From a virus (taxonomy: Duplodnaviria > Heunggongvirae > Uroviricota > Caudoviricetes), in the IMG/VR virus record IMGVR_UViG_2648501730_000022, positions 1-27,879 of that record: a DNA stretch of 27,879 nucleotides. The stretch is one strand, 5' to 3'. Shown here one piece after another: positions 2,403-21,203 of this stretch. The notes under the pieces are model-generated. The model did no database searches. It saw only the letters and a list, made by a program, of their open reading frames with translations, and was not told where the DNA came from. The position numbers were made by a program, and so were the translations under genes. Within the stretch, counting starts at the first letter, position 1. Every line of letters starts with the position of its first letter.

Positions 2403-2448
2403 GTTGAATACCTCCATGCAGTTATTTACTAGGCTTAGGGAGAAGGGA

Positions 2449-3102: not shown

Positions 3103-3662
3103 TATACATTCTCCACTAATTCGAATTTCATCTTGCCAATCTGGGCGATCTTCCAATCGATGTTTTCAGTTTTGAGAAGAAATTCGCCCTCTACGTTCTG
3201 ATACTTGATCACCTCACCCGCTAGGACGTTTTGGCGCAAGTTAGGGAAGAGTTTCATTTCACCACCTGATTTCACGTCTTCGGTGATCGTGTAGATTTTC
3301 TTGTGGTTCTCAAACTGGATGATAGTTCCCGCTTTCAGTGTTCCGGTGAAGTTGGAGAGTCTTACCTTGCGCCCACCGCGAGCAGTACCAGCAGCAGCCG
3401 TAACCATCTGGCGTACATCACCTGTATATTTTGAAAAGTAAGACAGTGGCACACTAAAAGGACGACCAAAAAGGTGACGTGCTACAAATTCTTTTACTTC
3501 GTTAATATCCTGAGCCATGTAATTCGCGGTAAATTCTGCTTCGTAAAAATGGATGCCAGTAAAGCGACGCTGGAACTTACCGGAGATAGATTGCGCCTTG
3601 AAGAAAGGTTGTTTTGATTTAAGAGTAAAATCTGTGATTTTAATATTCTTGGATTTGAACAT
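3102..3662 (-). CDS. Minor/distal tail protein (M/Dit-like position), 186 aa
   Basis: First ORF downstream of the tape measure gene; assigned by synteny only. Confidence 0.4.
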   Translation of the reverse strand: MFKSKNIKITDFTLKSKQPFFKAQSISGKFQRRFTGIHFYEAEFTANYMAQDINEVKEFVARHLFGRPFSVPLSYFSKYTGDVRQMVTAAAGTARGGRKVRLSNFTGTLKAGTIIQFENHKKIYTITEDVKSGGEMKLFPNLRQNVLAGEVIKYQNVEGEFLLKTENIDWKIAQIGKMKFELVENV

Positions 3663-3664
3663 AG

Positions 3665-3710
3665 AAAAGCCCCCATAGTTTTATGATTATTTATGACTAT
3701 GGGGGCTTTT
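3665..3710 (-). other. Perfect 14-bp inverted repeat hairpin (AAAAGCCCCCATAG / CTATGGGGGCTTTT) between tape measure stop and next gene start
   Basis: Arms at 3665-3678 and 3697-3710, loop about 18 nt. The 3' arm GGGGG overlaps the likely Shine-Dalgarno of the downstream gene; followed by a U-run on the minus strand. Confidence 0.6.
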
Positions 3711-3712
3711 AA

Positions 3713-6067: not shown

Positions 6068-6070
6068 AAA

Positions 6071-6445
6071 TTACCCCAATTGTCCGCTCTTGAGCTTTTG
6101 TAATAATGAAGCGTCGAAAAAACTATCAACCAAAGCAGCGTTACGTTCTTCCTCTTTCTTACGAGCAATTTCTTTTATTTCTTCTTGCGTTTTAAATTGC
6201 TTGTCGTCCTTAATCATTCGGAATTGGTTAACATTGATTTTATTCAACCATTCACGAGTCATGTTAGGAGATGTAACGTGCATGTAATACATCGACTGTG
6301 CATGTCGCGCATCTTGAAACAGGGGGCTTTGTGGTTCAAGATATGTATCGAATATATGCAACGCCCAAAATAGCGTAATTGGCATATTATCCATCTCATC
6401 TTTACTCAAGCCCCGACGCATCATTTGCCGAAAATAAAAATTCAA
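6071..6445 (-). CDS. Tail assembly chaperone, -1 frame segment (T-like); probably made only as a frameshift fusion with the upstream ORF
   Basis: The track 'M' is a TTG codon with no ATG or obvious Shine-Dalgarno. This frame is open back into the last codons of the upstream ORF and ends 3 nt before the tape measure start. Confidence 0.45.
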   Translation of the reverse strand: MNFYFRQMMRRGLSKDEMDNMPITLFWALHIFDTYLEPQSPLFQDARHAQSMYYMHVTSPNMTREWLNKINVNQFRMIKDDKQFKTQEEIKEIARKKEEERNAALVDSFFDASLLQKLKSGQLG

Positions 6446-6453
6446 GAGCGGGT

Positions 6454-6762
6454 TTACTTTACCTCGTTTTCAATTACCGCCGCATCTTTCATCAATGATG
6501 CTTGAGCAACTAAGCCGATTAATTCGCTGCGGACGCTAGTATACAATGCCTTAACTTGTTCAATAGATTCAAATACTGGCTTACCGTCTTCATCTTCAAT
6601 ACAACGAAGAATAGAGCGTTCATCACGGTCTTTTTTATCAGTATTGAAAACATGTTCATTAAATTCTTGTACCGACATAGGGCGAGCATAGAACGTAAAT
6701 CCTCCGAGGGTTAAAGATTCACGTTTCGGAGAAAGAGCTTTCAGCATTTCATTCAGATTCAT
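6454..6762 (-). CDS. Tail assembly chaperone (G-like), 102 aa
   Basis: Small acidic protein immediately upstream of the tape measure region; ends ...GUA AAG UAA with the -1 frame open downstream. Confidence 0.55.
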   Translation of the reverse strand: MNLNEMLKALSPKRESLTLGGFTFYARPMSVQEFNEHVFNTDKKDRDERSILRCIEDEDGKPVFESIEQVKALYTSVRSELIGLVAQASLMKDAAVIENEVK

Positions 6763-6807
6763 TATTGTTTCCTCATTAATAGTGATTACGCTGTATTTAT
6801 TTAGAAT

Positions 6808-7314
6808 TTAAGAGATTTTCAAAGTCTGCTTAGTGCCAGTCTTCTTAATGTTATTGAGTAAAGCAGCCGGAGGATTGCTTAACCAATAGTAATGAAAACC
6901 GCTTTGCATACTGTTATAAGGAACAGTGACAGCAGCACCACCCAAATTAACGGTTATATTCCCCGCTCTACCGTTCTGGAGATATACAGCCATAGTAGGA
7001 GTACCGCCATTGAATTGACCAACGATAACGCCAATCAGACGCCCTACGCCCACGTTTTCGGGGTTCTCCATAGATCCTTTACCGCGCATGTCAGTTACTG
7101 GATAGTTTGAAGCAGTTACACCCCAGTTATTACCCAATGAAGTAGACCACGCAGCAGTAGCTACAACCGTATCCATACCACGACCACACATCGCACTCAT
7201 GTTAGCTGGGCGACTAACCTTTAATGCGTTCATTGCTGCGCTCATCCATCGTTGACCAGTTACAGAAACAGCAGATGACCCGACCCAGCCAGGCTTATTA
7301 ACGACATTCGCCAT
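6808..7314 (-). CDS. Hypothetical tail-associated protein (168 aa)
   Basis: ORF between the tail tube gene and the chaperones; Gly/Asn-rich beta-type composition; no recognisable motif. Confidence 0.35.
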   Translation of the reverse strand: MANVVNKPGWVGSSAVSVTGQRWMSAAMNALKVSRPANMSAMCGRGMDTVVATAAWSTSLGNNWGVTASNYPVTDMRGKGSMENPENVGVGRLIGVIVGQFNGGTPTMAVYLQNGRAGNITVNLGGAAVTVPYNSMQSGFHYYWLSNPPAALLNNIKKTGTKQTLKIS

Positions 7315-7329
7315 TTTGATTACTCCAAT

Positions 7330-7356
7330 AAAAAAGCCCCACCATTAAGGCAGGGC
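7330..7356 (-). terminator. Rho-independent terminator after the tail tube gene
   Basis: Minus-strand RNA GCCCUGCC-UUAAU-GGUGGGGC followed by U6 (plus-strand A-run 7330-7335). Near-identical to the terminator after the capsid gene. Confidence 0.7.
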
Positions 7357-7362
7357 TTATAA

Positions 7363-7482
7363 TTAATCTTTAGCCTTGCGGCTTCGTTTAGCTGTGGCTT
7401 TCGCCGTAACTTCTTCTACTTCTGGAATCACCACCGCTTCATGTTCCGGCTGTGGTTCCGGTTCGGGAAGTTCTTCGTTAGT
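7363..7482 (-). other. In-frame post-TGA extension of the tail tube gene (39 sense codons + TAA)
   Basis: Reading on past TGA at 7483-7485 gives TNEELPEPEPQPEHEAVVIPEVEEVTAKATAKRSRKAKD then TAA at 7363-7365; homologous to the extension after the capsid gene. Confidence 0.5.
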
Positions 7483-7956
7483 TCATCCGGCAGTGAAGAT
7501 TTGCTGTTTCAGCGGAGCACCATCCACCGCGAAGGTAAACTCTTTGGTTACAACTTCTTCATCGCCACCGTTCATAGCAACTTTAGAAATGAAGCCGTTG
7601 AAAGCGGTGCGAATACCAGTCTGTTTTGCTGCGTCAACGTAATATTCTACTTTAATCTGAATACGAGTACCGTCTTCGGCAGCTTTGATCAGTTTTTCAT
7701 GTACCGCATCGCCTGGGATGTAGTTAACGGTCAGAGTCAGATCAGGAACGTTCAGCTTCCCTACCAGTTTACGGTTATACTGAGAAGAGAAGGATTTAAC
7801 TTCTACAGTACCGCGCTCGATACCAGTTTCAGGAAAACCAGCACACTCTTTAATTTCTTCGTAGCTTTCGTGGTCGAGAGCGGTATTAGTGGTGTCCGCG
7901 TGATAGAACAGACTTACCAGACCACCAGTAAAAATATCTTTGAATTGCTGAGACAT
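7483..7956 (-). CDS. Putative major tail tube protein (157 aa)
   Basis: Short protein upstream of the chaperones and tape measure, followed by a strong terminator. ATG at 7954-7956 preceded by a GGGG Shine-Dalgarno. Homologous to the N-terminal ~160 aa of the 277-aa protein at 11595-12428 (shared DIFTG, FP.T, LTL, KA.ED motifs). Confidence 0.5.
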   Translation of the reverse strand: MSQQFKDIFTGGLVSLFYHADTTNTALDHESYEEIKECAGFPETGIERGTVEVKSFSSQYNRKLVGKLNVPDLTLTVNYIPGDAVHEKLIKAAEDGTRIQIKVEYYVDAAKQTGIRTAFNGFISKVAMNGGDEEVVTKEFTFAVDGAPLKQQIFTAG

Positions 7957-7986
7957 AGAATTACCCCTTAATTAAAATTGTTATTA

Positions 7987-8005
7987 CGGGGGAACTAGTC
8001 CCCCG
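7987..8005 (-). other. Hairpin CGGGGGA-ACTAG-TCCCCCG between fibre and tail tube genes
   Basis: 7-bp perfect stem; the same stem sequence recurs at 25555-25573. Confidence 0.5.
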
Positions 8006-8012
8006 ACTTTTA

Positions 8013-11000
8013 TTATTTAGTTGCTTTCAGTTCGGCAATTTCTTTCTGTAATGCTTCGATCTGGGCTTTATATTTGGCGTCCATTTCCTGCATAGCTTTG
8101 ATGATTAAAGCATTGACAGCAGAGTTAGAAATAGTCTTGATTGCTTCTGGATTTTCTGGATCTTCGGTGGATTGAATACCTACTGCTTCCGGCAATACTT
8201 CTTCCAGATCCTGAGCAATAATACCTACTTCGCGTTTAATCACACTACGGTCTTTAAGAGATTTAACTTTATCGTAGGTGTAGACTTTCAGTGAGTTTAC
8301 TTTCTCTAATGCGCCGTCCTGTAATTCTTCCTTGTTAATCTTCAAACGGGAGTCAGAGCGAATGTAAACATCGTTAAACGAACCGTTACGACCTGCGGTA
8401 AAGTCACCAGCAGCGTTAAAGTCAAAGTTAGTATCATGAACATGGAGACGAACAAGAGCGTTACCGATAGTACCGTCAGGAACGTGCACACCCATTGCTG
8501 CAATGTGATATTTACCCCAATGCGTCGCTTTCCATACGTTATGTGCCGAGTTGGTGGATTGAGGACACCCAACCATAAGACCAGCAGCACGGTCACGCCA
8601 GCTAGCCCAACTACCGCCAGCAACTTCACCACGAATCAGGCCATTACCGCCACCGGTTACAGTACCAGATTCCAACTGGATCATCTTATCCGCAAGTTTC
8701 CACGTCTGGGCTTGTTTCTGACCACGGAAGCGAATAACACCAGCATCATCGGAATACATCAAACCTAGTTCTAAGCCATTCGGATCTCTAAACCACAAAT
8801 GCTTATTACCAGTGCGCTTAAATTCAATATCAGCACCGTTAAGCGTGATATTACCGCCAGTGTGAATTGCTTGAGGCTTAACAGTACCGTTGATGGCAAA
8901 CTCAATTGCCGTAGTACCCGGACCGCCCGGACGTTGGGTATACCAATGCCAACCGCTTTCATCAGCACATTCAAATACTTGTTTACGAGCATCAGCGCCC
9001 CATGCACGAATATTGAAACTAGAAGTAGCTGTACCCTTACCCCAGCGAATCAGACCAGCAGATTCCAAATCACCGAAGAATTTAGTTTTAATCGCACCAG
9101 TTGCTAAAGTACGTTCAGTGGTGAAGTGAGCACCTTTACTATCTTCAAGCTGTATAACGTTATCACGAGCGTTATTGCTATCGCCCCAATGACTCAAACG
9201 GAAATAGTCGCGGGATTGTCCAGCACCAGCATCAAATGTTAAATATTGGCCTTTAATGTATGTGTTTCCAGCAAAACGAGCAGCACGACTTGCACGTTCT
9301 AAGACTAATGCACCTTCGTTACCATCACCACCCAAAGTAACATTACCGCTACCCAGATTGTAAATGAATGGACGATAGCCGTTCCAACCACCAAATTTAT
9401 CATTTTCGGCAGTAGACAGAAGATATACGTTTTGACCATCATTACGCCAGAATGCACCATAGTTACCGTAAATCATACGGAATGCATCACTGTTAGCAGC
9501 TACATATTGACCATTGGTGTATACAATTTTGGTAGCACCTGTGCTTAAAGATACTTGACCACTTGCTTCTAATTTAACAAAGTTTTTACCTTCGTCACTA
9601 TACCATTGAAAATCGTTAGTATCTGTAGAACCAAAACCAAACCAGCCTTGACGTTTATTAGCCCCGTCTCGCTGATCCATATATTCAAAATAGTTACTAC
9701 GACCAGTAGGACGCCACATACGAATCGCGTTATTGCCTTGCAGATGAAGTCTATCGACAAATAAACCATCACTACCAACAATTTTTAATACTTCTTTTTG
9801 GTCGGTGGAACCAGTAGCCAAACGATACACATCACCTTGAACAGTTTCATGCCATATTGTTTCCGCCGCACGACTGCGGAATTTACGCATATATTTTTTA
9901 TTGTTGTCTGGTACGTTATTAAGGCTCACAATATCATAGGTTGCTTGTGAGTTATTATCAAACATCAACGTTCCGGCTTTGTTTTCGGTGTTGAACATCG
10001 TAATAACACGAGCATCGGTAACACCAACAGAAGGTTTAACGAGAGTTAATTCAGGAACATCATGTACTGTCAGAGTAACGCCATCAGTTTTACCGTATTC
10101 GACAATAACGTTATCGGTGTAACGACCGTAGTTAACGTAGATATCGTAGTTATCACCGGAAGTATTAACCGCAAATACTTGATGAACGTTCAGAGCATTT
10201 CGACGATAAGCAGCAATACTAACGCCTTTCGGGTTATTGTTACCGGAACGGATGACAATTTCTACAAAGTCAACCTGATCATAAGAGTTAACGTTATAAC
10301 CATTACCACCGAAGATACGAAGCATTACCATTCGACCATTCTGTGGGATCGTAGCGGTTGCGATCTTGAAGTATCCACGAGTAGCATCACCAGAAGGAAC
10401 GGTCATTCTAACGTTCTTGATGAACATCTGATCAACTTCGGCTTTACTATACACACCCAATTCAGTCGGAGTCGGCTTATCACCTTCGTGATACATGCGG
10501 TAGCTGAATCGCTTATTACCATCTTTATCAAAGCCATAGGTTTTAACTTGAGATGAGCTAGACCCATAGTGGAACTCAAAACCGCGACCGTGTGCTTTAC
10601 CGCCAGAATGAGGAATGTTAAGGATTAAGTTACCCCAACCTTCGGCATTGTTTGGACGGAATGCACCAAAATAATCAAGGTTACGAGCACCAGCATCATC
10701 AAAATAGTTAGCTGTTTTGGTTAACAGATAGCCGTGATGGTAAGTGTTGGTATTCTTCTTGATGTAAGCAGCATCGGCACTACCTTCAATAGAATCAATT
10801 CGCTGGTTAGCTGCGGCAATTGCGGCATCAGTAGAAGATTTATTCTGGTCTACCTTGTTGTTAATTGCTGTATGGTTGCTATTAACTGTCCCCGTAAGAT
10901 TGGTGATCTTCGTGTCGGCATCGCGTTTATTATTTGCTACGGTCGTTTCTATGGCTGATTTATTTGCTGAGACAGTATTCGTTAAGTTAGTAACGTTGGT

Positions 11001-11513
11001 ATTAGTCTGATCAACTCGTGCATTAATATCTGTCTTGTTCTTGTTAATTGTTGCGTTGATAGTATCGCGGGTTGAAGTAATAGTCTGATTCAGTTCAGTC
11101 TTAGCAGCCGCCAGAGCGTTAGCCGCTTCGGTTTTATTGTTACCTACTGTGGTAGTCAAAGCATCAATTCGTTTGTTGGCTGCGGTGTCGCCAGCAGTGA
11201 TTGAAGCATTGAGAGCATCACGGGTAGAAGTGATAGTCTGATTCAGTTCAGCTTTAGCACTAGCCAGATTATTAGCGGCTTCTTGTTTGTTGGAAGCAAT
11301 AACACGGTCAGTGCTAGTTTTGTTATTGTCTACTTTCGTATTCAGTTCAGCGTGTTTTTCTGGAGAAACACTAATTTGGACTACGTTATTATTTTTGTCT
11401 TTGGTGTAAATCACATGATCCGCCAACTGTAAGGCGATTTCACCCTGTGATAATTGTTCCGGCGTTGGTTTTTTACCCGCCGTCTGTGTGCGTTTAAATT
11501 GGATTGATTGCAT
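8013..11513 (-). CDS. Long side tail fibre (1166 aa) with C-terminal intramolecular chaperone / peptidase S74-like domain
   Basis: ATG at 11511-11513 with GAGGTGA Shine-Dalgarno. Internal ~52-aa repeats near the N-terminus; a central motif (DESGWHWYTQR) recalled as P2 gpH / lambda Stf-like; C-terminal ~110 aa (SDSRLKINKEEL...VGIIAQDLEEVLPEAV...) matches the self-cleaving chaperone of T5 pb1 and K1F endosialidase. Confidence 0.75.
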   Translation of the reverse strand: MQSIQFKRTQTAGKKPTPEQLSQGEIALQLADHVIYTKDKNNNVVQISVSPEKHAELNTKVDNNKTSTDRVIASNKQEAANNLASAKAELNQTITSTRDALNASITAGDTAANKRIDALTTTVGNNKTEAANALAAAKTELNQTITSTRDTINATINKNKTDINARVDQTNTNVTNLTNTVSANKSAIETTVANNKRDADTKITNLTGTVNSNHTAINNKVDQNKSSTDAAIAAANQRIDSIEGSADAAYIKKNTNTYHHGYLLTKTANYFDDAGARNLDYFGAFRPNNAEGWGNLILNIPHSGGKAHGRGFEFHYGSSSSQVKTYGFDKDGNKRFSYRMYHEGDKPTPTELGVYSKAEVDQMFIKNVRMTVPSGDATRGYFKIATATIPQNGRMVMLRIFGGNGYNVNSYDQVDFVEIVIRSGNNNPKGVSIAAYRRNALNVHQVFAVNTSGDNYDIYVNYGRYTDNVIVEYGKTDGVTLTVHDVPELTLVKPSVGVTDARVITMFNTENKAGTLMFDNNSQATYDIVSLNNVPDNNKKYMRKFRSRAAETIWHETVQGDVYRLATGSTDQKEVLKIVGSDGLFVDRLHLQGNNAIRMWRPTGRSNYFEYMDQRDGANKRQGWFGFGSTDTNDFQWYSDEGKNFVKLEASGQVSLSTGATKIVYTNGQYVAANSDAFRMIYGNYGAFWRNDGQNVYLLSTAENDKFGGWNGYRPFIYNLGSGNVTLGGDGNEGALVLERASRAARFAGNTYIKGQYLTFDAGAGQSRDYFRLSHWGDSNNARDNVIQLEDSKGAHFTTERTLATGAIKTKFFGDLESAGLIRWGKGTATSSFNIRAWGADARKQVFECADESGWHWYTQRPGGPGTTAIEFAINGTVKPQAIHTGGNITLNGADIEFKRTGNKHLWFRDPNGLELGLMYSDDAGVIRFRGQKQAQTWKLADKMIQLESGTVTGGGNGLIRGEVAGGSWASWRDRAAGLMVGCPQSTNSAHNVWKATHWGKYHIAAMGVHVPDGTIGNALVRLHVHDTNFDFNAAGDFTAGRNGSFNDVYIRSDSRLKINKEELQDGALEKVNSLKVYTYDKVKSLKDRSVIKREVGIIAQDLEEVLPEAVGIQSTEDPENPEAIKTISNSAVNALIIKAMQEMDAKYKAQIEALQKEIAELKATK
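11051..11300 (-). repeat. Tandem in-frame ~156-nt repeats inside the fibre gene
   Basis: Two near-identical blocks (...AGTCTGATTCAGTTCAG...) encoding repeats of the form A.AK.ELNQTITSTRD.INA.I; further diverged copies upstream. Confidence 0.6.
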
Positions 11514-11544
11514 CTAGAATCACCTCACTATAAAACAGGAATAA

Positions 11545-11562
11545 GGGAGGCGTTAACCTCCC
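11545..11562 (-). terminator. Hairpin GGGAGG-CGTTAA-CCTCCC between the 277-aa gene and the fibre gene (attenuator-like)
   Basis: 6-bp GC stem followed by a U-rich tract on the minus strand, upstream of the fibre Shine-Dalgarno. Confidence 0.4.
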
Positions 11563-11594
11563 AACGTTCATGTTTTATTTAGGTAGGAGAATCC

Positions 11595-12428
11595 TTAGTA
11601 TTCGCCGAAATCGATCCGGTCAGTCTTAGCCACTGCGCCAATTTCGCTAGGTGTCGGTTTCTCATTGGTGGAATATACCTTGATCCATTCAGAACGACCG
11701 TTTTCCTGAATATTTCGGACACGTAAACGCGGTGCGCCAGAAGTATTACAGGTTAATTGCCATGCGCCATGCTCATTAGCTTGAAGGTGAATTAATGCTG
11801 TGTCGGTTGAATATGGATTACCGCTAGCAGTTCCCTTGTAAGTTACGAAACGGTTTCCGGCTAATGCCTCGCTGTCAATCGGACCCGTGAATGGATTTAC
11901 ACCAGCACCCAAACCAAAATCACCCTGACGTAAGATCCGGCCTTCGGTAGCAATACCCCTTGCCAAAATCCCGCCATCTGGTTCAAGTTTAAATTCCAGT
12001 GTTACAGCTTTGTTATCACTACCACGGGTTTTATGTGATGTGACGTAAGCATCGAATATACAAAAGTACCCTGTGTTAGCAGCACTATAGCCAGAGTTCA
12101 CAACATAGAACATACGGAAGCGTAAAGGTGTTTTATCCTCTACCGCTTTCATCAACATTGCTTGATGTTCATCGTCAAGAACACGGTTTAATGTGAGTGT
12201 TGTCGGTTCCAGTCTACGATAACCAGCAAGTTTCCCCGTAGCGTCCTGATCGTACTCTTCCAGAGTTTCTATCTCTGTGGATTCGGTTAGCGTAGGGAAT
12301 GCTGCGATGTTCTCCATAGAACTAAAGCTAGGATCGAAAAAGTCGACCTGATTGTCTATCTGGTTAGAGATCGACACTTCAACATGTGATCCAGTGAAAA
12401 TATCTAAGTTATCTTGTGTAATATTCAT
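11595..12428 (-). CDS. Tail-tube-like paralog with extra ~115-aa C-terminal domain (277 aa)
   Basis: N-terminal ~160 aa homologous to the 157-aa tail tube protein; unique C-terminal domain. Confidence 0.45.
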   Translation of the reverse strand: MNITQDNLDIFTGSHVEVSISNQIDNQVDFFDPSFSSMENIAAFPTLTESTEIETLEEYDQDATGKLAGYRRLEPTTLTLNRVLDDEHQAMLMKAVEDKTPLRFRMFYVVNSGYSAANTGYFCIFDAYVTSHKTRGSDNKAVTLEFKLEPDGGILARGIATEGRILRQGDFGLGAGVNPFTGPIDSEALAGNRFVTYKGTASGNPYSTDTALIHLQANEHGAWQLTCNTSGAPRLRVRNIQENGRSEWIKVYSTNEKPTPSEIGAVAKTDRIDFGEY

Positions 12429-12437
12429 TATTACCCC

Positions 12438-12860
12438 TTAAAAACGCGCTAGATAAGAAAATTTAAGGCTAAGTGTCCCAACGATACCCCCATCACTAGA
12501 ATCATCGTCATAATCGGTATTAGAAGCTACTGGAGTGATATCTGAAATAGAGAAGCCCAAATCTTTAAATCGTGGGTTATCCGGCTGAATCTGGATTATC
12601 TGGCAAATACCCTCATGGATTTTTGTTTCATGAATCTGAGAATATAATTGCATTTCGATAACGCATTCAGCTTGCATTGCATTACCACCACGAACACGCG
12701 TATAAGTTTCATTCATGCCAGTAATCCAACAAACCACGTCATCACTAAAGCCTTGCTGAGTTTGTTCTACGTTTAAAGCCAGACCTAAATCTTGTTCGAT
12801 AATATCTTGCAAGGCGCGTTTGATTTTCAGTCTCGGCATATTATTAACGGTAGCGAGCAT
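12438..12860 (-). CDS. Head-tail connector / tail completion protein (140 aa)
   Basis: Assigned by position between capsid and tail genes; overlaps the upstream gene by 17 nt. Confidence 0.3.
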   Translation of the reverse strand: MLATVNNMPRLKIKRALQDIIEQDLGLALNVEQTQQGFSDDVVCWITGMNETYTRVRGGNAMQAECVIEMQLYSQIHETKIHEGICQIIQIQPDNPRFKDLGFSISDITPVASNTDYDDDSSDGGIVGTLSLKFSYLARF

Positions 12861-13134
12861 GTGTACCCCCTGCTAAAGTGATAAAGCAATCACAAGTATT
12901 GTCACCATTGCGCTTAACGTATTGAACTTTGAAACGCTGGTTTTCTACTGTGACAATATCACCTTGCTTTAAGTCTCCCTCACGACAGAATAGAAATTCG
13001 GTTTCTGTCATTACACCTGATTCGTCGGTAGTAGTAATTTCATGGTAAGCACGAATTGATTTACCACCTTCCACCGAAAATACAGGAGCACTTTTAAACA
13101 TTCGATTTAATTGTGATTCTGATAATTTGAACAT
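12844..13134 (-). CDS. Head-tail adaptor / head completion protein (96 aa)
   Basis: Small ORF immediately after the capsid terminator; assigned by synteny. Confidence 0.3.
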   Translation of the reverse strand: MFKLSESQLNRMFKSAPVFSVEGGKSIRAYHEITTTDESGVMTETEFLFCREGDLKQGDIVTVENQRFKVQYVKRNGDNTCDCFITLAGGTHARYR

Positions 13135-13164
13135 AGTTACCCCCTTTATGGAGTATTTACATAC

Positions 13165-13190
13165 AAAAAAGCCCCACCGTTAGGCAGGGC
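13165..13190 (-). terminator. Rho-independent terminator after the capsid gene
   Basis: Minus-strand RNA GCCCUGCC-UAAC-GGUGGGGC followed by U6 (plus-strand A-run 13165-13170). Confidence 0.7.
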
Positions 13191-13196
13191 TAATTA

Positions 13197-13325
13197 TTAT
13201 TCTTTAGTTTTACGTTGTTTTTTAACTGTGGCTTTCGCCGTAACCGTCTGAGATTCTTCTTCCTGAGATGGAATCAGATTTTCTTCCCCCAAATCGGGGG
13301 AAGGTTCAGATGGTTCTACGTTAGT
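13197..13325 (-). other. In-frame post-TGA extension of the capsid gene (42 sense codons + TAATAA)
   Basis: Reading on past TGA at 13326-13328 gives TNVEPSEPSPDLGEENLIPSQEEESQTVTAKATVKKQRKTKE then TAA TAA (13194-13199). Confidence 0.5.
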
Positions 13326-15332
13326 TCATTCAGCGGAGATGTGAAGAACTTTCAGAGCTTCCGGCTGAACTACGGTGAAGTCCAGGTCTACCCAGATACG
13401 CGGAACGATAGCAGACTGTGCGCGGTAAGTGGTGTCGTCCATATCCAGTTCCAGACCACCCCATTCACCGATCATGATACCGGAGAAGTCACCCAGAACG
13501 ATGTGGTCTGCCGGAATAACGCCAGAAGTAACTACATCGTAACCAGCCAGTTTGCCGTTTTCGATGATATAACCGGAAACGCCGTTATCTTTCAGGGTAG
13601 ATTCCAGTTCAGCAGCAGTTGCACCGCTCATTGCAAACTTGATGGACTGTGCCGGAACGCCAGCGTCGGTCAGTGCTGCAATTTCTTTCAGGAAGTCTTT
13701 GTAGCTAAAAGCGGCTTTCTTAGTAACGCGACCACCGTCTACCAGTTGCTTAACCAGACCTTTCGGACCGCGCTCGTTGTCTTTGTCAGACAGAATCAGT
13801 TGTTCCAGTTTGATCCGAACAGATTTGTTAATGTGATCAGTGATCAGGGTAGCAATATTCGGAACAGTTTTCAGAGACTGACGGCTGATCGGGTTGCCAC
13901 CAGCAAAAGTTTTCGGAGCCATTTTCACGTTTTCAAAGCTAGCCTTCGATTCGGGGGCACTTCCATTTTCATCAACAAAACCAAAGGCTTCGACGCTGGA
14001 AGCAGTCATTTTTGGTACTGCAATCGGGCTATTCAGACCAGACAGAACAGTCACACCCAGACGACCCAGAACAGACTGTGGAAGCAGCATTTCTACATAG
14101 GATTCGGTCAGCAGTTTTTCGTCGGTTACAGCGGTCAGAGTAGCTTTGGTGTTACCTTCGGAAGCAGCACGCAGAGCAGCAGCCGGAACGAATACAGAGC
14201 CACCGCGAGCAGCACGACCACGCTGCATTGCAGCACCAGCAGCCATAGCGGAATATTCAGCTTCGTTAGCGCCGAGCACGTCGCCATCTACCAGGGAGCG
14301 GATTACGTTATTAAGATCGAAAGTTTTTTCCATGATTTGTTCCTTATTAATTTGTTCGTTATTACGTTGAGCATTGGTAATGTTATTTAGTGCCTTAGTG
14401 CGGAATGCTTCCGGCGTCATATCTTTAACTGCCAATGCGCGTTCTAATTCTTCGTCGTTAATATTTAACTCACGAGCGATTGCTCGGATTTCTTCTTCGT
14501 CTTCTTCGGAACGTTCAGCCACTTCTTCGATTTTTTCTTCTTCAACCGGAGCGGCTTCACGTTCTTCTTTTACTTCTTCTGTTTCCCGAACAGTTGAACT
14601 ATCATCATCAACACTTTCAGGATGTTTAGCGTCTTTTCCGTCTTCGAGATTTTCATCTTCTTTATTCTCTTCAACTTGGCGCTCTTGAGTTTCTTCTACT
14701 TCCGGTTCTTTATTTTCTTCTACCGGAGTTTCTTCAACCTGAGCGGGTTCTTGTTCTTCTTTGATTTCTTCGATTTGTTCTTTAGTCATATCGCGTTTAG
14801 CCTCCAAATTAACTGTGATAGTATTTAGAGAGCGATTCAGACCCACGGTGTCGTCTGCGGGAACAGACACCCATGAAACCTCGTGAGGAATCCATTTAGT
14901 AACAATCAATTGTCCTTTGGTGTAGTCGATGTGATATTCTTTAATGTCATAACCGACAGAAATTTTTTCCATCGTACCTTCAATGACTTTATTACGAATA
15001 TCATTAGCCAAAGTGCCATGCTTAGAGAATTTAACCAGAGCACGACCTACGTTATCCGCATCGATTCGAGCGTTACAAACGACACCAATATGATTATCGA
15101 AATTATGATTGAACAGCAACGGAGCGTTATTATTCAGACGAGACAGATCAACCGCTTCCGGTGTATGTACCAGAATTTCATCTAATACCACCATTTCTTG
15201 ATTTTGCTCATCCCAGAATTGGCGCTGATAAGGCTGTTCACTGGAGAAAGCAATTTCAAATTCGTATTGATCATTCTGCCCTTCGTTAATAACTCCACCG
15301 TAACCGTTAAGATCGCGGCGAAATTTAAGCAT
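13326..15332 (-). CDS. Fused prohead protease (HK97/S78-like) / scaffold-like acidic coiled coil / major capsid protein (668 aa)
   Basis: N-terminal ~170 aa carry a His (HNFDNHIG) and the ExSxVxxPA signature (HEVSWVSVPADD) typical of HK97-family prohead proteases; residues ~180-300 are Glu/Lys-rich and helical; the C-terminal ~350 aa look like an HK97-fold capsid domain. Confidence 0.7.
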   Translation of the reverse strand: MLKFRRDLNGYGGVINEGQNDQYEFEIAFSSEQPYQRQFWDEQNQEMVVLDEILVHTPEAVDLSRLNNNAPLLFNHNFDNHIGVVCNARIDADNVGRALVKFSKHGTLANDIRNKVIEGTMEKISVGYDIKEYHIDYTKGQLIVTKWIPHEVSWVSVPADDTVGLNRSLNTITVNLEAKRDMTKEQIEEIKEEQEPAQVEETPVEENKEPEVEETQERQVEENKEDENLEDGKDAKHPESVDDDSSTVRETEEVKEEREAAPVEEEKIEEVAERSEEDEEEIRAIARELNINDEELERALAVKDMTPEAFRTKALNNITNAQRNNEQINKEQIMEKTFDLNNVIRSLVDGDVLGANEAEYSAMAAGAAMQRGRAARGGSVFVPAAALRAASEGNTKATLTAVTDEKLLTESYVEMLLPQSVLGRLGVTVLSGLNSPIAVPKMTASSVEAFGFVDENGSAPESKASFENVKMAPKTFAGGNPISRQSLKTVPNIATLITDHINKSVRIKLEQLILSDKDNERGPKGLVKQLVDGGRVTKKAAFSYKDFLKEIAALTDAGVPAQSIKFAMSGATAAELESTLKDNGVSGYIIENGKLAGYDVVTSGVIPADHIVLGDFSGIMIGEWGGLELDMDDTTYRAQSAIVPRIWVDLDFTVVQPEALKVLHISAE

Positions 15333-15352
15333 TTAATCACCTTTAATTAATT

Positions 15353-15369
15353 GGGGGCATTGCGCCCCC
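15353..15369 (-). other. Hairpin GGGGGC-ATTGC-GCCCCC between portal and capsid genes
   Basis: 6-bp G/C stem in the 45-nt intergenic gap. Confidence 0.45.
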
Positions 15370-15377
15370 GTTGGTTA

Positions 15378-16889
15378 TTAGGGATCGGTTTGAGAAGGGT
15401 TATCCTTGCTCTCACCATCAACGATAATATTTAGTGCGCTCTTTTCGGCTTGAATCTCTGAGAATACTTTTTCAGGATCATCACCACGTTCTAATATAAC
15501 GGCAGTACGTGATTTAAGTCCGTTATCAATTAAAGCAATCTCGGCGCTTACGTCTTTAAATGGATCGACGGATTCAAAACGAGGACGAATAATAGTAGTG
15601 TTCTCGATAATATGCGGAATTGCAGTAATACGAATCGGAACAATACCACGCGCAGAATAATGGCGTAGATATGCTTCAAAAATTGGCAATACCACTGTTT
15701 CAATCAATTTGTTTTGCAGTGCTTTAACGCGCGTTCTTTGAAGTAATTCGCCGTAGCGTGCGGCGCTGTAATTTATTTGGCTAGTATCGCCAGTTAAGCC
15801 CTGATTGAACACGCCAAGACCCATCGCTATACTCGTGAACATTCCATCATTGAAGCTGTTAAAGTCATCGCCGCTTTGCGTGGATTGAATACTCTTGATC
15901 GTTGCCCCTTCCGGTAATTCCTGAATAGTACCTGGCGCGAAATCGTGAATAACTTCCGGCGCTTGATATTGTTCATCATCTTCACCAGTATCAAAATCGT
16001 CACCAGAATCTTTCGGACGCTCGATGAACGCCATGCTACAACTTGAAATTCGTTTATGTACCAGTACAGCTTCGCGGAATGCGTCTTGATGTGCGATATC
16101 CTTAATCACTGGCAGGAAGTCAGTCACACCACGCAGAGATTCAGCCGCAAGTGGTTGATAATAATGACATACTTGCGAAGCATCTACGCGATAGTTATCA
16201 CCTGTGTAAGTCTGAGTCAGTAGGTTGATTTTACGAAACCAAAATGCAACAGGGCGCATTGTTTCTACGTCATACTCGATCCCCTGATAGATAGCGCGTT
16301 CTTTGCTTACTTCACGGTTGAGCGTCCAGTCGCACTTATCAGCAGACAGGATAGAAACATTTAACTCATTGTTTTCTTTGGTTAAAACTATGAAGCACTC
16401 ACCACCCATAACGCGCTCACGTTCAGCCATTACCAGCAATTCACGGAAGTTAAAGCGACCGTTACGAGAGAAGCGTTTAGCATTCTGCGCCCACTTCCAG
16501 AAAGCATTCTCGATCTGCTTATTCAGTGCGCTATCAAGTTTTCCATTTGATTTAACAACTGACGGCTTCGGATCTAGGCCAGTACCTACCACCATATCGG
16601 TGATGTATTGCGTGTAGCGACTGCCTACGGAGGTGTTTAAGGCCAGAGTACGACCCTGATCATAAAGGCGCTTACCATTCGATTTGAGAGCCTTATTGAA
16701 GGTTCCTGTGATAGTATCTTGTTGAAGCGATCCATCAATGCGATCACCAACCAGACCTAAACTTCGAGTAGCCAGAGATTTCTGGAATTTTTCTACTTGT
16801 TTGTCGATAAAGATTTTTTGTTGTTGCTGGCGGTGATTAGTTTTAACTGGAGTTTCTACCGCCTTTTTGCGTCGAAAAAGATTAAACAT
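15378..16889 (-). CDS. Portal protein, lambda gpB-like (503 aa)
   Basis: ~500 aa protein between the gpW-like and capsid genes; GGGG Shine-Dalgarno 6 nt before the ATG; acidic C-terminal region. Confidence 0.8.
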   Translation of the reverse strand: MFNLFRRKKAVETPVKTNHRQQQQKIFIDKQVEKFQKSLATRSLGLVGDRIDGSLQQDTITGTFNKALKSNGKRLYDQGRTLALNTSVGSRYTQYITDMVVGTGLDPKPSVVKSNGKLDSALNKQIENAFWKWAQNAKRFSRNGRFNFRELLVMAERERVMGGECFIVLTKENNELNVSILSADKCDWTLNREVSKERAIYQGIEYDVETMRPVAFWFRKINLLTQTYTGDNYRVDASQVCHYYQPLAAESLRGVTDFLPVIKDIAHQDAFREAVLVHKRISSCSMAFIERPKDSGDDFDTGEDDEQYQAPEVIHDFAPGTIQELPEGATIKSIQSTQSGDDFNSFNDGMFTSIAMGLGVFNQGLTGDTSQINYSAARYGELLQRTRVKALQNKLIETVVLPIFEAYLRHYSARGIVPIRITAIPHIIENTTIIRPRFESVDPFKDVSAEIALIDNGLKSRTAVILERGDDPEKVFSEIQAEKSALNIIVDGESKDNPSQTDP

Positions 16890-16899
16890 GATTTACCCC

Positions 16900-17394
16900 T
16901 TATCGCGTAAGACGTAATTTGATATTTTTAATCGGACTAATTCCCTGTTTACGTCGTTCGGCTTGAATTAATTTAGATAACTGACGTTCATAATCAGTCT
17001 TTAATTGCTGGAGAACAGCCAATGACTCATAGGCGAAAGTATTCCCTTTCACTGTCATTTGAGATAATGCGGCTTCGTCCCCAGATAAACGGGCGAAAAT
17101 AACTTGCTCGATTAAGGCGATAGTTTCCCGCAGATATTCTTTTTTGGATTGTTTGGCGAATACTGGCAAAACAGTTAATTCCTGCATTGATACCAGTTCT
17201 TCTTCCAAAGTTATTACGATGGTATATTTACCTTCGGCAAAATCTAAGGTTTTAATCTCATGATTAGCCGGAGAATCATCAACCTGATAGATAATACCTT
17301 TATTATTTCCTACCTGAATTGTTACACCCTCTTCATTCGCCAGCGTGACTTTTTCGCCTTTACGAATTACTAAGGGAATTAGTTCTAAACTCAT
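16900..17394 (-). CDS. Head-tail joining protein with gpW-like C-terminal half (164 aa)
   Basis: C-terminal ~70 aa follow the lambda gpW pattern (recalled, not aligned); sits between large terminase and portal as in lambda A-W-B. Confidence 0.45.
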   Translation of the reverse strand: MSLELIPLVIRKGEKVTLANEEGVTIQVGNNKGIIYQVDDSPANHEIKTLDFAEGKYTIVITLEEELVSMQELTVLPVFAKQSKKEYLRETIALIEQVIFARLSGDEAALSQMTVKGNTFAYESLAVLQQLKTDYERQLSKLIQAERRKQGISPIKNIKLRLTR

Positions 17395-17466: not shown

Positions 17467-19371
17467 TTAGAACGATGTTACCCAGCTACGGCCTCTATTT
17501 GGGCGTCTGGCGATGTTTTTACGTTGTGGTCGTGTGATTGGCTTATTTTCTTCGATTTGCTCGTCAGATTGCGATTTAGGAGCTTCTACGGGTTCTTCTG
17601 GTTCGCGGTTCAAACTATCTTTGATGGCTTCGAGTTTTTCCCATGACATTTTATTGAGTACATGGCGAGAAGCAGCATAGGAATAAGCCAGGCAGTCGAG
17701 AGCCTCGTTTCGTTGCTGACCAACTTTTACCCAACGTGTGGTATTACCCTGCCGTTTCAACTGTTCAGATAACAATTGTTCGCAGTAGTCATCAGGAACG
17801 TCACCAATCTGGAAGACCGTATGAGGATCGCTGTCTCTCAAGTTCCGGTTAATCATTTCACGGATCATCGTCTTAAGGTTGTTTACGCCCAGAATTTTAA
17901 GAGTAAAACCACCCGTTCTTGTGTCCTTGACCGGAAGGATTGGAGCATCAACATTGCTTGCCCCTTTAATGGCGCATAGGTTTTGCCACCTAGTGCAGAA
18001 GCGATAGATCACGTTTGTAGCTCGTCCGTTCGATGAGTCCACGAAAGCAGATAGCATCGGGATTCGTTGACCTGATCGGGTATAGAATTTAGCTTTCAGG
18101 AAGTTGTAAAGCTGGTCATATGCTGGCGATTCGTGGCGTTCGCAGTTCACATCATAGAATGATCGGTGATCAACTACGCATATCCCCTTACGAGAGATAC
18201 CCAGCAAGGTAGATTCCAGACGGTCTTTTTGCTGGTCAACTCCACCTACCAGAGCCAGAACATCATCAGGAATATTATCTAAGCTAATGTCAGTTTTCAG
18301 CGTTTCCAGTTCGTCGGCTGTGCGGTCTTCGTTAAGATCATCGAAGGTTTCACCGAGCACCACATTATAGAACGTTGCCAGTGACATATTCGCGTAGCTA
18401 TCAGCAAAGTCCACCACACACGCACGGATAGAACTAAACGGAGACATAAGGCGGTTAGCATGAAAACCGATTACTTCCGCATTTGGTTCGGTGGCGACCC
18501 ATTCTCCCTGAGCAACAGCACGGAGGCGATCTGGTTCTGACCAATCAGTTTCACATGACGGGCAACGGTAAACGGCTGTGTCTGGATTCGGCAGTGATTT
18601 ACCATTGATTACATGCCAATCAAAGAATACTCTACTCCATTCCATTACGTGTTTGTGTCCGCAATGCTGGCAAACGACGTGGTATTTTCTTTTATCCGAG
18701 AGTTCCCATTGTTGGTTTATCGCCCCATCCCGCGAAGTTGGAGTAGAAGCAATTACGATCCTTGCATCATCACCGAAAGTGGTTGCGCGTTGTTCCGCTA
18801 GCTGGATCGGGTTCCCTTCGTCTGACTCATCAGCCGCATCAACTTCATCCAGAATAATCAAAGGCAGTGTCTTACCGCGCAAGTGTGATGGACTGTTCAG
18901 CGACATGAAATACATGAATGATCCGTTACGAAGCTGAATAATCGATGAGTTGTTAACGGCATTGCGATCTGATTTGTCGGTGATCATCGCCTTTAATTCT
19001 GGGGTTGCCTCTAATACTGGCTTCACCTTACCCGCAATCCATGAGTTCAATTCTCGAACGTTCGCTTGCAAAACACCGATATTAGTAGGGTTACTGGCGA
19101 TCCTGTGAAAGATAATACCGTTTAGCACAAGAGTTTTACCCAACTGTGCCGAGCACTTTAGCACAATTTTTCGCCTATCTTCGGTGATCGCGTCCATCAT
19201 TCCACGTTGGAAGGGATGCAACTTAATTAGAGATCCGGCTTTAACACCATCGGTTGCAACTACATTAGCCTCTACCCATTCGCTAGGTTTCATCGTTTTA
19301 GGTGGGCGAATTGCCGCAGAGATATTTTTAAGAATCTTTTTTAATTTGGCCTTATTAGAAATCAGTTTCAT
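17467..19371 (-). CDS. Terminase large subunit, lambda GpA-like (634 aa)
   Basis: Walker A motif (KCSAQLGKT) near the N-terminus; Cys-rich segment (CQHCGHKH...CPSCETDW); size and position match lambda gpA (641 aa). Confidence 0.9.
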   Translation of the reverse strand: MKLISNKAKLKKILKNISAAIRPPKTMKPSEWVEANVVATDGVKAGSLIKLHPFQRGMMDAITEDRRKIVLKCSAQLGKTLVLNGIIFHRIASNPTNIGVLQANVRELNSWIAGKVKPVLEATPELKAMITDKSDRNAVNNSSIIQLRNGSFMYFMSLNSPSHLRGKTLPLIILDEVDAADESDEGNPIQLAEQRATTFGDDARIVIASTPTSRDGAINQQWELSDKRKYHVVCQHCGHKHVMEWSRVFFDWHVINGKSLPNPDTAVYRCPSCETDWSEPDRLRAVAQGEWVATEPNAEVIGFHANRLMSPFSSIRACVVDFADSYANMSLATFYNVVLGETFDDLNEDRTADELETLKTDISLDNIPDDVLALVGGVDQQKDRLESTLLGISRKGICVVDHRSFYDVNCERHESPAYDQLYNFLKAKFYTRSGQRIPMLSAFVDSSNGRATNVIYRFCTRWQNLCAIKGASNVDAPILPVKDTRTGGFTLKILGVNNLKTMIREMINRNLRDSDPHTVFQIGDVPDDYCEQLLSEQLKRQGNTTRWVKVGQQRNEALDCLAYSYAASRHVLNKMSWEKLEAIKDSLNREPEEPVEAPKSQSDEQIEENKPITRPQRKNIARRPNRGRSWVTSF

Positions 19372-20405: not shown

Positions 20406-21203
20406 TTACAGTCCGAAGTGTTCTAGCGATCCAACATTCTGACGAATCATGATAGTCGCTTTATTCTGAATCATGATCGTGTTATTCGGTTTAGGCAGTG
20501 TCAAAGCTGCTTTTTGTTCTTCTTCAAGAACACCCAATTCAACCAGCACCGGAAGCACATCAACAGTGAAAGAAAGTTGATAGTGAGCGTTCATGCTGCA
20601 AAACGGTATCGCGGAATCATTAGCAACATACCCACACGGCTTGTTATTTTCATCATAGACGCGCTCAATGTATCCGGCAGTACGTAAGGCCGTCAGTGCT
20701 TCTTTAACCTTCGTAGCGCCCTTTTTAGCACCTAACAGACGCGTCATTGAATGGCTATCTACGGATTTGCGATGATGTAGAGTAATCAGTTGCTTGTTCT
20801 CGCGAGTTTTCTTTAACGCCAGTTCGATCCAGTCGGTTTCTTCAAAGTCTGCATACGGGTTAACGGCTAAACGTTCCTGACGCAGTTTTTCATTTTCTTC
20901 TTTCAGTCGTTTCCATTCCTGAATAACAATCATTCGACGTTTAACATCGTAACCAGTAACAAGAGTCAGCGTCATTTCTTCGTCAAGGTGATATTCGGTT
21001 TGTTCGCGTCCATATTGGTCAAAATAGATACGCTGAGATTTCAGCGCATCTAATTCAAGTGCTTTAAACATCTTAACAATATCAGCTTTAACGTTTTTGT
21101 GTTCTTTTCCGGTAAATTCAGCGATCTGACGAGAAGACATGGTCAGTGGTTTGGTGTTATCAACAACCAGAGACACGGAAGCAGTTTTAACAGCAGTATT
21201 CAT
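20406..21203 (-). CDS. Phage regulatory protein Rha family (antirepressor-like), 265 aa
   Basis: N-terminal LTMSSRQIAEFTGKEHKNVKADI matches the Rha-domain signature; AAGGGGGA Shine-Dalgarno before the ATG. Confidence 0.75.
   Translation of the reverse strand: MNTAVKTASVSLVVDNTKPLTMSSRQIAEFTGKEHKNVKADIVKMFKALELDALKSQRIYFDQYGREQTEYHLDEEMTLTLVTGYDVKRRMIVIQEWKRLKEENEKLRQERLAVNPYADFEETDWIELALKKTRENKQLITLHHRKSVDSHSMTRLLGAKKGATKVKEALTALRTAGYIERVYDENNKPCGYVANDSAIPFCSMNAHYQLSFTVDVLPVLVELGVLEEEQKAALTLPKPNNTIMIQNKATIMIRQNVGSLEHFGL

Follow-up and report, generated by a model that had tools for sequence, protein, structure and literature searches.

HK97 encodes its prohead protease (gp4) and its capsid protein with the delta-domain scaffold (gp5) in two genes. 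Fusions of both are already described: the NCBIfam entry NF045541 is defined as 'prohead protease/major capsid protein fusion protein', and actinophage genes are annotated in the literature as 'major capsid and protease fusion protein'. Roseophage vB_DshS-R4C (R4C; gp6), RcCronus, phiHAP-1, VP882, FoX/Murka, Mano and Bas97 each possess a three-part single ORF of 600-685 aa directly 3' of a lambda-family portal gene, annotated in Murka as 'major capsid protein and protease'. The tripartite capsid gene of Gifsy-2 from Salmonella (T=7) reportedly joins a protease, a central scaffold-like region and the capsid (ascribed to Effantin et al. 2010). Besides, nested genes are known from lambda (C/Nu3), HSV-1 (UL26/UL26.5), HFTV1 (gp17/gp17.5) and OsHV-1, where a long form carries the protease, a short in-frame form starts at the protease end, and initiation sets the ratio of the two; in HFTV1, the nested start was shown by Ribo-seq. 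A further case, from a paper on Type I CBASS, was discarded, being a protease-scaffold rather than a capsid fusion.

A protease, a scaffold-like segment and a capsid domain in one frame

Here, we analysed a stretch of 27,879 nucleotides (the window) containing the head-maturation genes of a temperate siphophage of ~35 kb that resides in E. coli as a prophage; strains MEI003 (NZ_CP071263) and 14EC029 (NZ_CP024141) are examples of such lysogens. Its layout of portal, hairpin, protease, capsid and terminator is that of HK97, yet a single ORF (13326..15332, minus strand; ATG to TGA, 668 codons, 73.8 kDa precursor) takes the place of the two HK97 genes. The first-pass annotation had proposed that protease, scaffold-like and capsid domains share this one frame, and all three were indeed recovered in it. 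The strand of the ORF was absent from that annotation.

An identical 668-aa protein is encoded on 106 contigs, the independent near-identical variants listed (n=120) all measure 665-670 aa, and the coding sequence is intact in all six complete E. coli genomes and in 31 of 32 IMG/VR alleles, that is, in 37 of the 38 alleles fetched. Consequently, the fusion gene is genuine and no artefact. An assembly or sequencing error that masked a stop or frameshift and made two genes look like one, which had been named beforehand as one way in which the fusion reading could fail, finds a foothold in just one IMG/VR allele (L053, broken at codon 393); it is already refuted by the allele survey and its probability is negligible, the more so as the same architecture recurs in many isolated phages and in 516 clusters (50% identity; E<=1e-30).

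The protein aligns end to end with PHROG 617 (major head protein; E 1.7e-94, residues 20-663 against profile positions 23-621 of 626) and also matches PHROG 4523, 'major head and protease protein', PHROGs being a collection without curated cutoffs. Matches in IMG/VR number at least 574. With NF045541 it obtains 129 bits where the cutoff is 525, over residues 21-334 only, and because of this shortfall we read it as the same architecture in a different lineage. Its identity to the R4C-group phages is only 27-32%, and the nearest relative with a phage record, DCP80, reaches 43%. The architecture is known, common and already named, as well as ancient and widespread, and the unusualness implied by the first-pass annotation is not borne out by the cluster and IMG/VR counts, by NF045541, by the literature annotation and by the Gifsy-2 gene. 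Taken alone, the fusion changes nothing in what is known. The Gifsy-2 protease is said to be ClpP-like, not S78, and a lambda gpD-like decoration protein to be used there; in our case, the N-terminal protease is of the S78 type, and Pfam and PHROG searches returned neither a ClpP/S14/S49 match in the fusion protein nor a decoration gene in the window.

Domains and predicted processing

Four segments follow one another. The protease occupies about residues 20-169, and a tether that is acidic and predicted to be disordered spans 170-270; a scaffold-like segment of helices (271-393) then leads to the capsid domain, which runs to residue 668. The boundaries of domains and disorder come from an alignment-based structure model (pLDDT 81, above 90 in the protease region), which delivered the per-domain prediction suggested earlier; a single-sequence AlphaFold2 model was unusable (pLDDT 35).

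The S78 (HK97 gp4-type) prohead protease domain (14826..15275, minus strand) matches Peptidase_S78 (PF04586) over residues 40-162 with 39.3 bits (cutoff 21), as the first-pass annotation had expected of an HMM search. His76 (15105-15107), Ser125 (14958-14960) and Glu151 (14880-14882; all minus strand) are each present in 100% of 149 relatives at ~30% identity and align to H65, S114 and E141 of HK97 gp4, of which we take H65 and S114 to be the catalytic residues (Duda et al. 2013). In light of this invariance and alignment, the protease looks active, with S125 within ISVGY as the likely nucleophile. The two motifs quoted previously, H76 in HNFDNHIG and E151-x-S-x-V-x-x-P-A, are present, while the likely nucleophile had gone unnamed. 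Might the domain instead have decayed into an inactive remnant whose sole role is now that of additional scaffold, maturation being left to a host or another phage protease? The stricter equivalog TIGR01543 stays below its curated cutoff (34.5 versus 59 bits) and hhalign gives a probability of just 39% for the match to HK97 gp4. Nevertheless, we consider such decay very improbable in view of the three fully conserved residues, their alignment with the gp4 catalytic pair and the Pfam score above the gathering threshold, and those ORFs of the window that were scanned (Pfam, PHROG) yielded no second protease gene. PDB sequence searches with the fusion protein and the family profile matched no protease chain; in the fold searches, where the herpesvirus assemblin-like fold would be the expected counterpart of an S78 protease, capsid matches filled the lists of solved structures.

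Next comes the tether proper (residues 182-270; 14523..14789, minus strand), which is acidic (43% Asp+Glu, pI 4.1) and predicted to be disordered, and whose length varies widely among members of the fusion family. The 'acidic coiled-coil linker' of the first-pass annotation is therefore correct as to acidity, whereas the helical, scaffold-like part is the following segment. HK97 gp4 ends in a 75-residue C-terminal targeting tail that the fusion lacks, and the 89-aa acidic tether stands in its place. The putative scaffold-like (delta-like) domain (residues 271-388; 14169..14522, minus strand) is modelled as helices with a pLDDT of 80-96. It bears no detectable sequence similarity to the HK97 delta domain and ends at the conserved R388.

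The C-terminal domain matches Phage_capsid (PF05065) over residues 410-664 with 92.5 bits (cutoff 24.2), and the family profile matches HK97 gp5 (1OHG) at 1e-11 (hhalign E 1.5e-8). The HK97 fold (N-arm, E-loop, P and A domains) is recovered as well, in keeping with the capsid fold proposed at the outset, so HK97 and the fusion share both protease family and capsid fold. R388, found in 135 of the 149 relatives, lies 11 residues N-terminal of a GG-x-LV motif and corresponds to K103/S104 in the gp5 sequence. HK97 likewise loses its helical N-terminal scaffold at a basic residue ~10 residues before an (A/G)G-x-L motif, and by analogy we predict maturation cleavage at R388/A389. The predicted mature capsid protein (A389-E668; 13329..14168, minus strand) would comprise 280 aa (29.7 kDa), compared with 282 aa in HK97. 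As for R4C, the virion model of gp6 (PDB 8GTA) holds only residues 362-629, the C-terminal 268 of a 629-aa fusion, and removal of the N-terminal two thirds is hence to be expected here as well, in line with the processing envisaged originally. The 361 N-terminal residues missing from the R4C chain also lend indirect support to a putative proteolytic activity on the precursor. Neither the paper on the R4C structure nor one on marine phage proteomics mentions protease or cleavage. HK97-type chainmail is unlikely in this phage because Lys169, which forms the isopeptide crosslink with Asn356 in HK97, has Ala459 as its aligned counterpart.

A candidate internal start at the protease boundary

The annotated ATG is preceded at 6 nt by a Shine-Dalgarno (SD)-like AAGGTG (15338..15343, minus strand; duplex -4.3 kcal/mol). 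Further 5', a GC-rich hairpin (15352..15370, strand not assigned) occupies the interval between portal stop and fusion-gene start, where HK97 has a putative terminator. Within the gene, a stronger SD, GGAGG (14801..14805, minus strand; -9.3 kcal/mol), lies 11 nt 5' of an in-frame ATG (M182; 14787..14789, minus strand), the candidate start of a 487-aa (53.1 kDa) tether-scaffold-capsid product without protease. This SD reads GGAGG in 26 and GGGGG in five of 32 IMG/VR alleles, and GGAGG in five and GGGGG in two of the alleles from the window and the six complete genomes.

A comparable site recurs far beyond E. coli. Of 15 diverse phage fusion genes, 14 have such an ATG, in frame and with an SD-like site, 14-43 residues past the PAD motif. 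The median SD energy in the 14 genes tested is -5.95 kcal/mol, whereas 190 internal ATGs elsewhere in the genes have a median of -2.2 kcal/mol (p=1e-5). The effect was replicated on 43 non-redundant IMG/VR genes, 39 of which have the boundary ATG (median -5.8 versus -2.1 kcal/mol, MWU p=3e-12; 59% versus 7% in the top decile). The signal persists against a local background of +-90 nt, where 21 of the 39 sites rank no higher than the 10th percentile (binomial p=1e-11) and the M182 site of the window ranks at 0.6%. Moreover, mRNA structure is locally weak at boundary ATGs (p=3e-18), Met is 1.8-fold enriched at +16 to +30 with Thr, Ser, Glu or Pro typically as the next residue, and in one clade the boundary Met begins a conserved block, M-x-EKILRDA. 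The boundary ATG is absent in four of the 43 relatives, and that of cyanophage S-LBS1 has no SD. From these data, we regard it as modestly probable that a conserved internal ribosome binding site and ATG make this a nested gene, yielding a protease-less 487-aa scaffold-capsid precursor. Another internal candidate, M334 (AAGGA, 7-nt spacing), was rejected, since DCP80 has Leu at this position and the SD is no better than average.

The opposing view is that only the full-length 668-aa protein is made from the fusion, so that each capsid subunit brings its own protease (1:1, with about 415 copies in a T=7 procapsid) and processes itself. The boundary ATG and SD would then be an unused relic of the start that the capsid gene once had, or would simply follow from the composition of the linker. 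One ORF whose annotated start has a usable SD is most simply read in this way, and the 11 nt from GGAGG to ATG182 are a long spacing by E. coli standards. Besides, purine-rich codons in the linker downstream alone favour SD-like motifs and weak mRNA structure, an influence that the +-90-nt control covers only in part. The load would also be physically possible: 415 x 44.1 kDa amounts to 18.3 MDa, or about 50-66% of a cavity with a radius of 200-220 A, which we assume from HK97 proheads. However, it would amount to about 2.5-3 times the internal mass of HK97 proheads, and a relic should decay at 25-45% protein identity, yet the ATG is kept in 39 of 43 genes, 54-59% of the kept ATGs have a top-decile SD although codons and amino acids differ by lineage, and the internal SD outmatches that of the annotated start. 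Full-length synthesis alone is accordingly a possibility that we rate as real, if on the doubtful side. Within E. coli, the sequence around M182 hardly differs between alleles, which neither supports nor refutes selection on the site. In a synonymous-site comparison, diversity is low throughout codons 181-270 and dN >= dS, a pattern uninformative on selection that is probably due to the history of recombination and to a relaxed linker.

The 1:1 co-incorporation of protease and capsid deduced by the first-pass annotation therefore does not follow, since the conserved in-frame ATG and SD suggest a second, protease-less product that would set the ratio. Altogether, we lean, with some reserve, towards a fused HK97-type protease, scaffold and capsid module that assembles through its capsid domain, processes itself near R388/A389 and has a nested start at M182. 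In this module, a gp4-like protease gene and a gp5-like scaffold-plus-capsid gene are joined in one frame; precursors would polymerise via their capsid domains, forming a T=7 procapsid that encloses the N-terminal parts, the acidic tether replacing the gp4 targeting tail for packaging. The crowded protease domains might then digest tether, scaffold and themselves, and a cut near R388/A389 would leave the 280-aa shell protein of about 30 kDa. With initiation at M182 supplying the protease-less precursor, initiation would set the protease:capsid ratio, which thus need not be 1:1, resembling lambda C/Nu3, HSV-1 UL26/UL26.5 and HFTV1 gp17/gp17.5. In those systems and in OsHV-1 the capsid protein has a separate gene, whereas the short form of the fusion would carry the capsid domain; and in place of the Ribo-seq of HFTV1, it is sequence statistics that suggest internal initiation here. 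If true, the internal start would answer how such fusions avoid one protease per shell subunit, and the nested-gene solution of lambda, herpesviruses and an archaeal virus would work with the capsid in the same frame.

A candidate readthrough tail on the capsid protein

Past the TGA, the frame stays open for 42 codons (13200..13325, minus strand), first acidic and then basic in character, up to a TAA TAA at 13194-13199. In all 38 intact alleles the TGA is followed by A and the frame remains open for 28-45 codons, so at the level of sequence both elements of a readthrough site, a conserved, putatively leaky stop and a conserved open in-frame extension, are in place. The extensions (28, 42, 43, 44 or 45 codons) contain no stop in frame 0 and one to seven stops in each other frame. 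No independent start codon common to all post-stop variants was found. Their variable sites distribute over the codon positions as 7/17/20, which is not clearly coding-like, and the extension is absent from distant relatives, including the R4C-group phages. We hence treat it as a candidate readthrough tail, with a predicted junction of ...VLHISAE-W-TNVEPSEPSPDLGEENLIPSQEEESQTVTAK (Trp or another residue at the UGA).

C-terminally extended capsid proteins reportedly arise by -1 frameshift in T7 (10A/10B), by +1 frameshift in Listeria phage PSA (Cps) and by UGA readthrough in Qbeta (A1), and a minor extended capsid species from the same gene would parallel these cases. To our knowledge, no dsDNA phage capsid gene has been shown to use UGA readthrough, a text search of the literature for such a case found none, and a tail of this kind would, as far as we know, be a new case of recoding. 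It could also offer a natural site for capsid display. More tentatively still, and rather unlikely in our eyes, the one capsid gene might be a translational program with up to four primary products, in which the choice between the annotated ATG and ATG182 decides on protease carriage and UGA readthrough adds a 28-45-residue acidic-then-basic tail to some subunits, the nested start being a general and previously unremarked trait of the S78-capsid fusion family. Such a program would carry the principle known from C/Nu3 of lambda and UL26/UL26.5 of herpesviruses over to genes in which the capsid protein is itself encoded.

All extensions end in TAA TAA. In the window, an intrinsic terminator follows 3' of the capsid gene (13170..13191, minus strand), with a 9-bp stem containing six GC pairs and then a T-run; a terminator is annotated at this position, 3' of the capsid gene, in HK97, Mano and Mica as well.

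A catalogued fusion gene in a siphophage-type head module

The fusion gene is a 668-codon ORF that runs from ATG to TGA on the minus strand (window 13326-15332). Pfam searches placed Peptidase_S78 on residues 40-162 (39.3 bits, cutoff 21) and Phage_capsid on residues 410-664 (92.5 bits, cutoff 24.2), bearing out the first-pass annotation of a protease and a capsid protein in one reading frame. The protein also matched PHROG 617 from end to end (E 1.7e-94), as well as PHROG 4523 ('major head and protease protein'). The same annotation had considered that a sequencing error or frameshift might have created the fusion, yet the CDS is a single unbroken frame in six of six complete genomes and in 31 of 32 IMG/VR alleles. 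Besides, 106 contigs carry the identical protein, near-identical E. coli/Shigella variants measure 665-670 aa in all 120 cases among the matches listed, and 56 of 5,426 complete E. coli genomes carry the locus in the chromosome. The sole broken frame (L053, IMGVR_UViG_2877285697_000006; stop after codon 393) stems either from a decaying prophage or from a sequencing error. IMG/VR contigs with the gene are mostly 33-38 kb long, similar to HK97 (39.7 kb) and roseophage vB_DshS-R4C (R4C; 36.3 kb).

The fusion architecture was already known. Among 1.84 billion cluster representatives searched, 6,693 matched at E<=0.001 (516 at E<=1e-30), the top 150 being nearly all 560-760 aa long with both domains covered, and at least 574 matches came from IMG/VR. 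Isolated phages with the one-ORF layout include phiHAP-1, VP882, R4C, RcCronus, the FoX phages, Murka, Mano, Persinger, Bas97 and ECO1230-10, and annotations in the literature routinely use 'Major capsid and protease fusion protein'. An earlier published case, the 'tripartite capsid gene' of Gifsy-2, reportedly has a ClpP-like protease. An NCBIfam model, 'prohead protease/major capsid protein fusion protein', exists as well; the window protein scores below its cutoff, which places it in a different lineage. Given these matches, named models and phages, the gene belongs, as an unexceptional member, to a large protease-scaffold-capsid family. We see its interest in the mode of translation rather than in the fusion, namely in a probable nested start that would govern the protease dose and in a tail possibly added by readthrough.

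The gene is flanked by a lambda-family portal gene (15378-16889), a small gpW-like head-tail joining gene (16900-17394) and a large terminase gene of the lambda gpA type (17467-19371), with head-tail and tail genes downstream; this gene content identifies the region as the head module of a siphophage-type prophage. A GC-rich hairpin (15352-15370) separates portal and fusion gene, and a strong intrinsic terminator (13170-13191) directly follows the capsid gene. Putative terminators are annotated at both corresponding positions in HK97, and Mano and Mica likewise have one 3' of the capsid gene. A small-terminase-like ORF lies ~6 kb from the large terminase gene, the stretch between them holding an anti-repressor-like gene along with unannotated ORFs of either strand, and a HicB-like antitoxin fragment is found at the window edge (positions noted for these features: 25625-26179, 20406-21203 and 27529-27879, all minus strand).

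Protease, tether and capsid processing

Across 149 family representatives at ~30% identity, H76, S125 and E151 are each 100% conserved and E52, G83 and D160 reach 99%, the mark of a protease under catalytic constraint. A profile alignment to HK97 gp4 (modest, E 3e-4) puts H76, S125 and E151 on gp4 H65, S114 and E141. H65 and S114 are the reported catalytic pair of gp4 (Duda et al. 2013). The title of PDB entry 3QPR describes a prohead holding inactive protease. With S125 on S114, the predicted nucleophile is S125 in ISVGY and not the serine of the ExSxVxxPA signature cited initially. HK97 gp4 continues for 75 residues beyond its PAN motif, a C-terminal tail that is absent from the fusion, where an acidic tether starts 22 residues past the PAD motif. 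In our reading, this covalent tether would bring the protease into the procapsid in place of a non-covalent targeting step.

An AlphaFold2 model (58 diverse homologs, mean pLDDT 81) was confident for residues 20-169 (beta-rich protease), 271-393 (helices) and 409-668 (capsid), while residues 1-19, 170-270 and 394-408 were predicted to be disordered. Residues 182-270 are 43% Asp+Glu (pI 4.1) and vary more in length than any other segment in the family. What was proposed as an 'acidic coiled-coil linker' thus falls into two parts, a disordered acidic tether and, C-terminal to it, a helical scaffold-like domain. Among seven E. coli alleles, tether codons 181-270 (window 14523-14789) show a synonymous diversity of 0.007-0.019 per codon versus 0.1-0.3 in flanking blocks, and non-synonymous differences outnumber synonymous ones; possible explanations are a recombination block that spread recently, a loosening of constraint, or a combination of the two.

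The family profile matched HK97 gp5 (1e-11; hhalign E 1.5e-8). An HK97-type chainmail would be unlikely in this capsid, because the crosslinking Lys169 of HK97 aligns to an alanine (codon 459, window 13956-13958). No gene for a decoration protein turned up in the vicinity of the capsid gene. The R4C virion capsid protein (PDB 8GTA) corresponds exactly to residues 362-629 of the 629-aa R4C fusion ORF, so that the ordered shell holds only the C-terminal 268 residues. The R4C model begins at a GG-x-LV motif, upstream of which the family consensus reads RGFFVP-DVLR-DLTVGT--AGG-LV; R388, 11 residues before the motif, is present in 135 of 149 sequences. The HK97 delta domain ends at K103 (...TFNK/SLGSDADSAGSLIQP), 10 residues before AGSL. 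By this analogy, we predict maturation cleavage at R388/A389, although the actual site could lie anywhere in 389-399. The resulting mature protein would comprise 280 aa (29.7 kDa), compared to 282 aa in HK97.

A candidate nested start at the protease boundary

The first-pass annotation had further proposed 1:1 co-incorporation of protease and capsid, against which a conserved ATG with a Shine-Dalgarno (SD) site at the domain boundary argues. M182 (ATG at window 14787-14789, minus strand), 22 residues past PAD, is preceded at 11 nt by a GGAGG whose pairing energy with the anti-SD (-9.3 kcal/mol) falls in the 0.6th percentile of all in-frame windows of the gene and surpasses that of the annotated start (-4.3 kcal/mol). 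The E. coli alleles are too alike here to be informative on this site. Escherichia phage DCP80, at 43% identity, also has a Met with AAGGA at the aligned position. In the 149 representatives, Met is 1.8-fold enriched at +16 to +30 after PAD (91 observed, ~51 expected) and the next residue is mostly Thr, Ser, Glu or Pro, a pattern shared with genuine N-termini; one clade has this Met at the head of a conserved M-x-EKILRDA block.

Of 15 diverse phage genes, 14 have an ATG with an SD-like site at the boundary; the median was -5.95 kcal/mol in the 14 genes tested, versus -2.2 for the 190 remaining in-frame ATGs inside the genes (Mann-Whitney p=1e-5; permutation p<=1e-4). This was replicated in 43 independent IMG/VR fusion genes (mutual identity <60%): 39 have the ATG, the medians were -5.8 versus -2.1 kcal/mol (544 controls; p=3e-12), and 59% of boundary ATGs versus 7% of controls ranked in the top SD decile. 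The signal held against the local +-90-nt background (median local percentile 8.9; 21/39 at or below the 10th; binomial p=1e-11). mRNA structure is weak at boundary ATGs (median MFE -6.2 versus -14.5 kcal/mol, p=3e-18), yet this comparison is confounded by the purine-rich linker.

The ATG might be a relic of an ancestral capsid-gene start, but such a relic should not persist at this divergence and in new codon contexts, which favours a nested gene. A strict 1:1 protease load is physically possible but heavy, as its 18.3 MDa would fill 50-66% of a cavity of assumed 200-220 A radius. On these sequence features, and with the long 11-nt spacing before M182 as a caveat, we lean, by a modest degree, towards a nested gene encoding a 73.8-kDa protease-tether-scaffold-capsid protein and a 53.1-kDa tether-scaffold-capsid protein initiated at M182. 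Nested in-frame starts are established in lambda C/Nu3 and HSV-1 UL26/UL26.5, and ribosome profiling has shown one in gp17/gp17.5 of the archaeal virus HFTV1; the principle is also seen in OsHV-1.

Post-stop extension and tail fibre genes

Past the TGA (13326-13328), the reading frame continues without a stop through 42 further codons (TNVEPSEPSPDLGEENLIPSQEEESQTVTAKATVKKQRKTKE; window 13200-13325, minus strand) and closes with TAA TAA just upstream of the terminator. Every one of the 38 intact alleles has TGA as its stop and an A directly after it; the extensions are 28, 42, 43, 44 or 45 codons long, draw on alternative sequence modules and always end at the same TAA TAA, with zero stops in frame 0 versus 1-7 in each other frame. 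No start codon shared by all variants was found. Some relatives have a similar Ala/Thr/Lys-rich tail fused directly to the capsid protein end. Counting against translation, variable sites fall 7/17/20 by codon position, without clear third-position bias, and distant relatives lack the extension. Translation via programmed UGA readthrough or another route is a candidate to which we assign slightly less than an even chance; a text search yielded no phage whose major capsid gene is reported to use UGA readthrough.

Elsewhere in the window, a 1166-aa tail fibre (8013-11513, minus strand) matches T4-type 'long tail fiber distal subunit' families and a 168-aa ORF (6808-7314, minus strand) a gp38-like 'tail fiber adhesin'. 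The fibre genes lie between the major tail protein and tail chaperone/tape-measure genes, and parts of the window (including about 26.9-27.3 kb) share ~80-84% DNA identity with RB49-like (Krischvirus) virulent phages. These resemblances suggest that receptor-binding modules have passed between T4-like phages and a temperate siphophage. The 141-kb DCP80 record (L001, PQ671644.1), classified as T4-like Gaprivervirus, could be an assembly chimera or else a mosaic of an unusual kind: its positions 1-15786 carry a lambda-type terminase, a small gene, a portal and a 666-aa fusion, all annotated as hypothetical and syntenic with the window.
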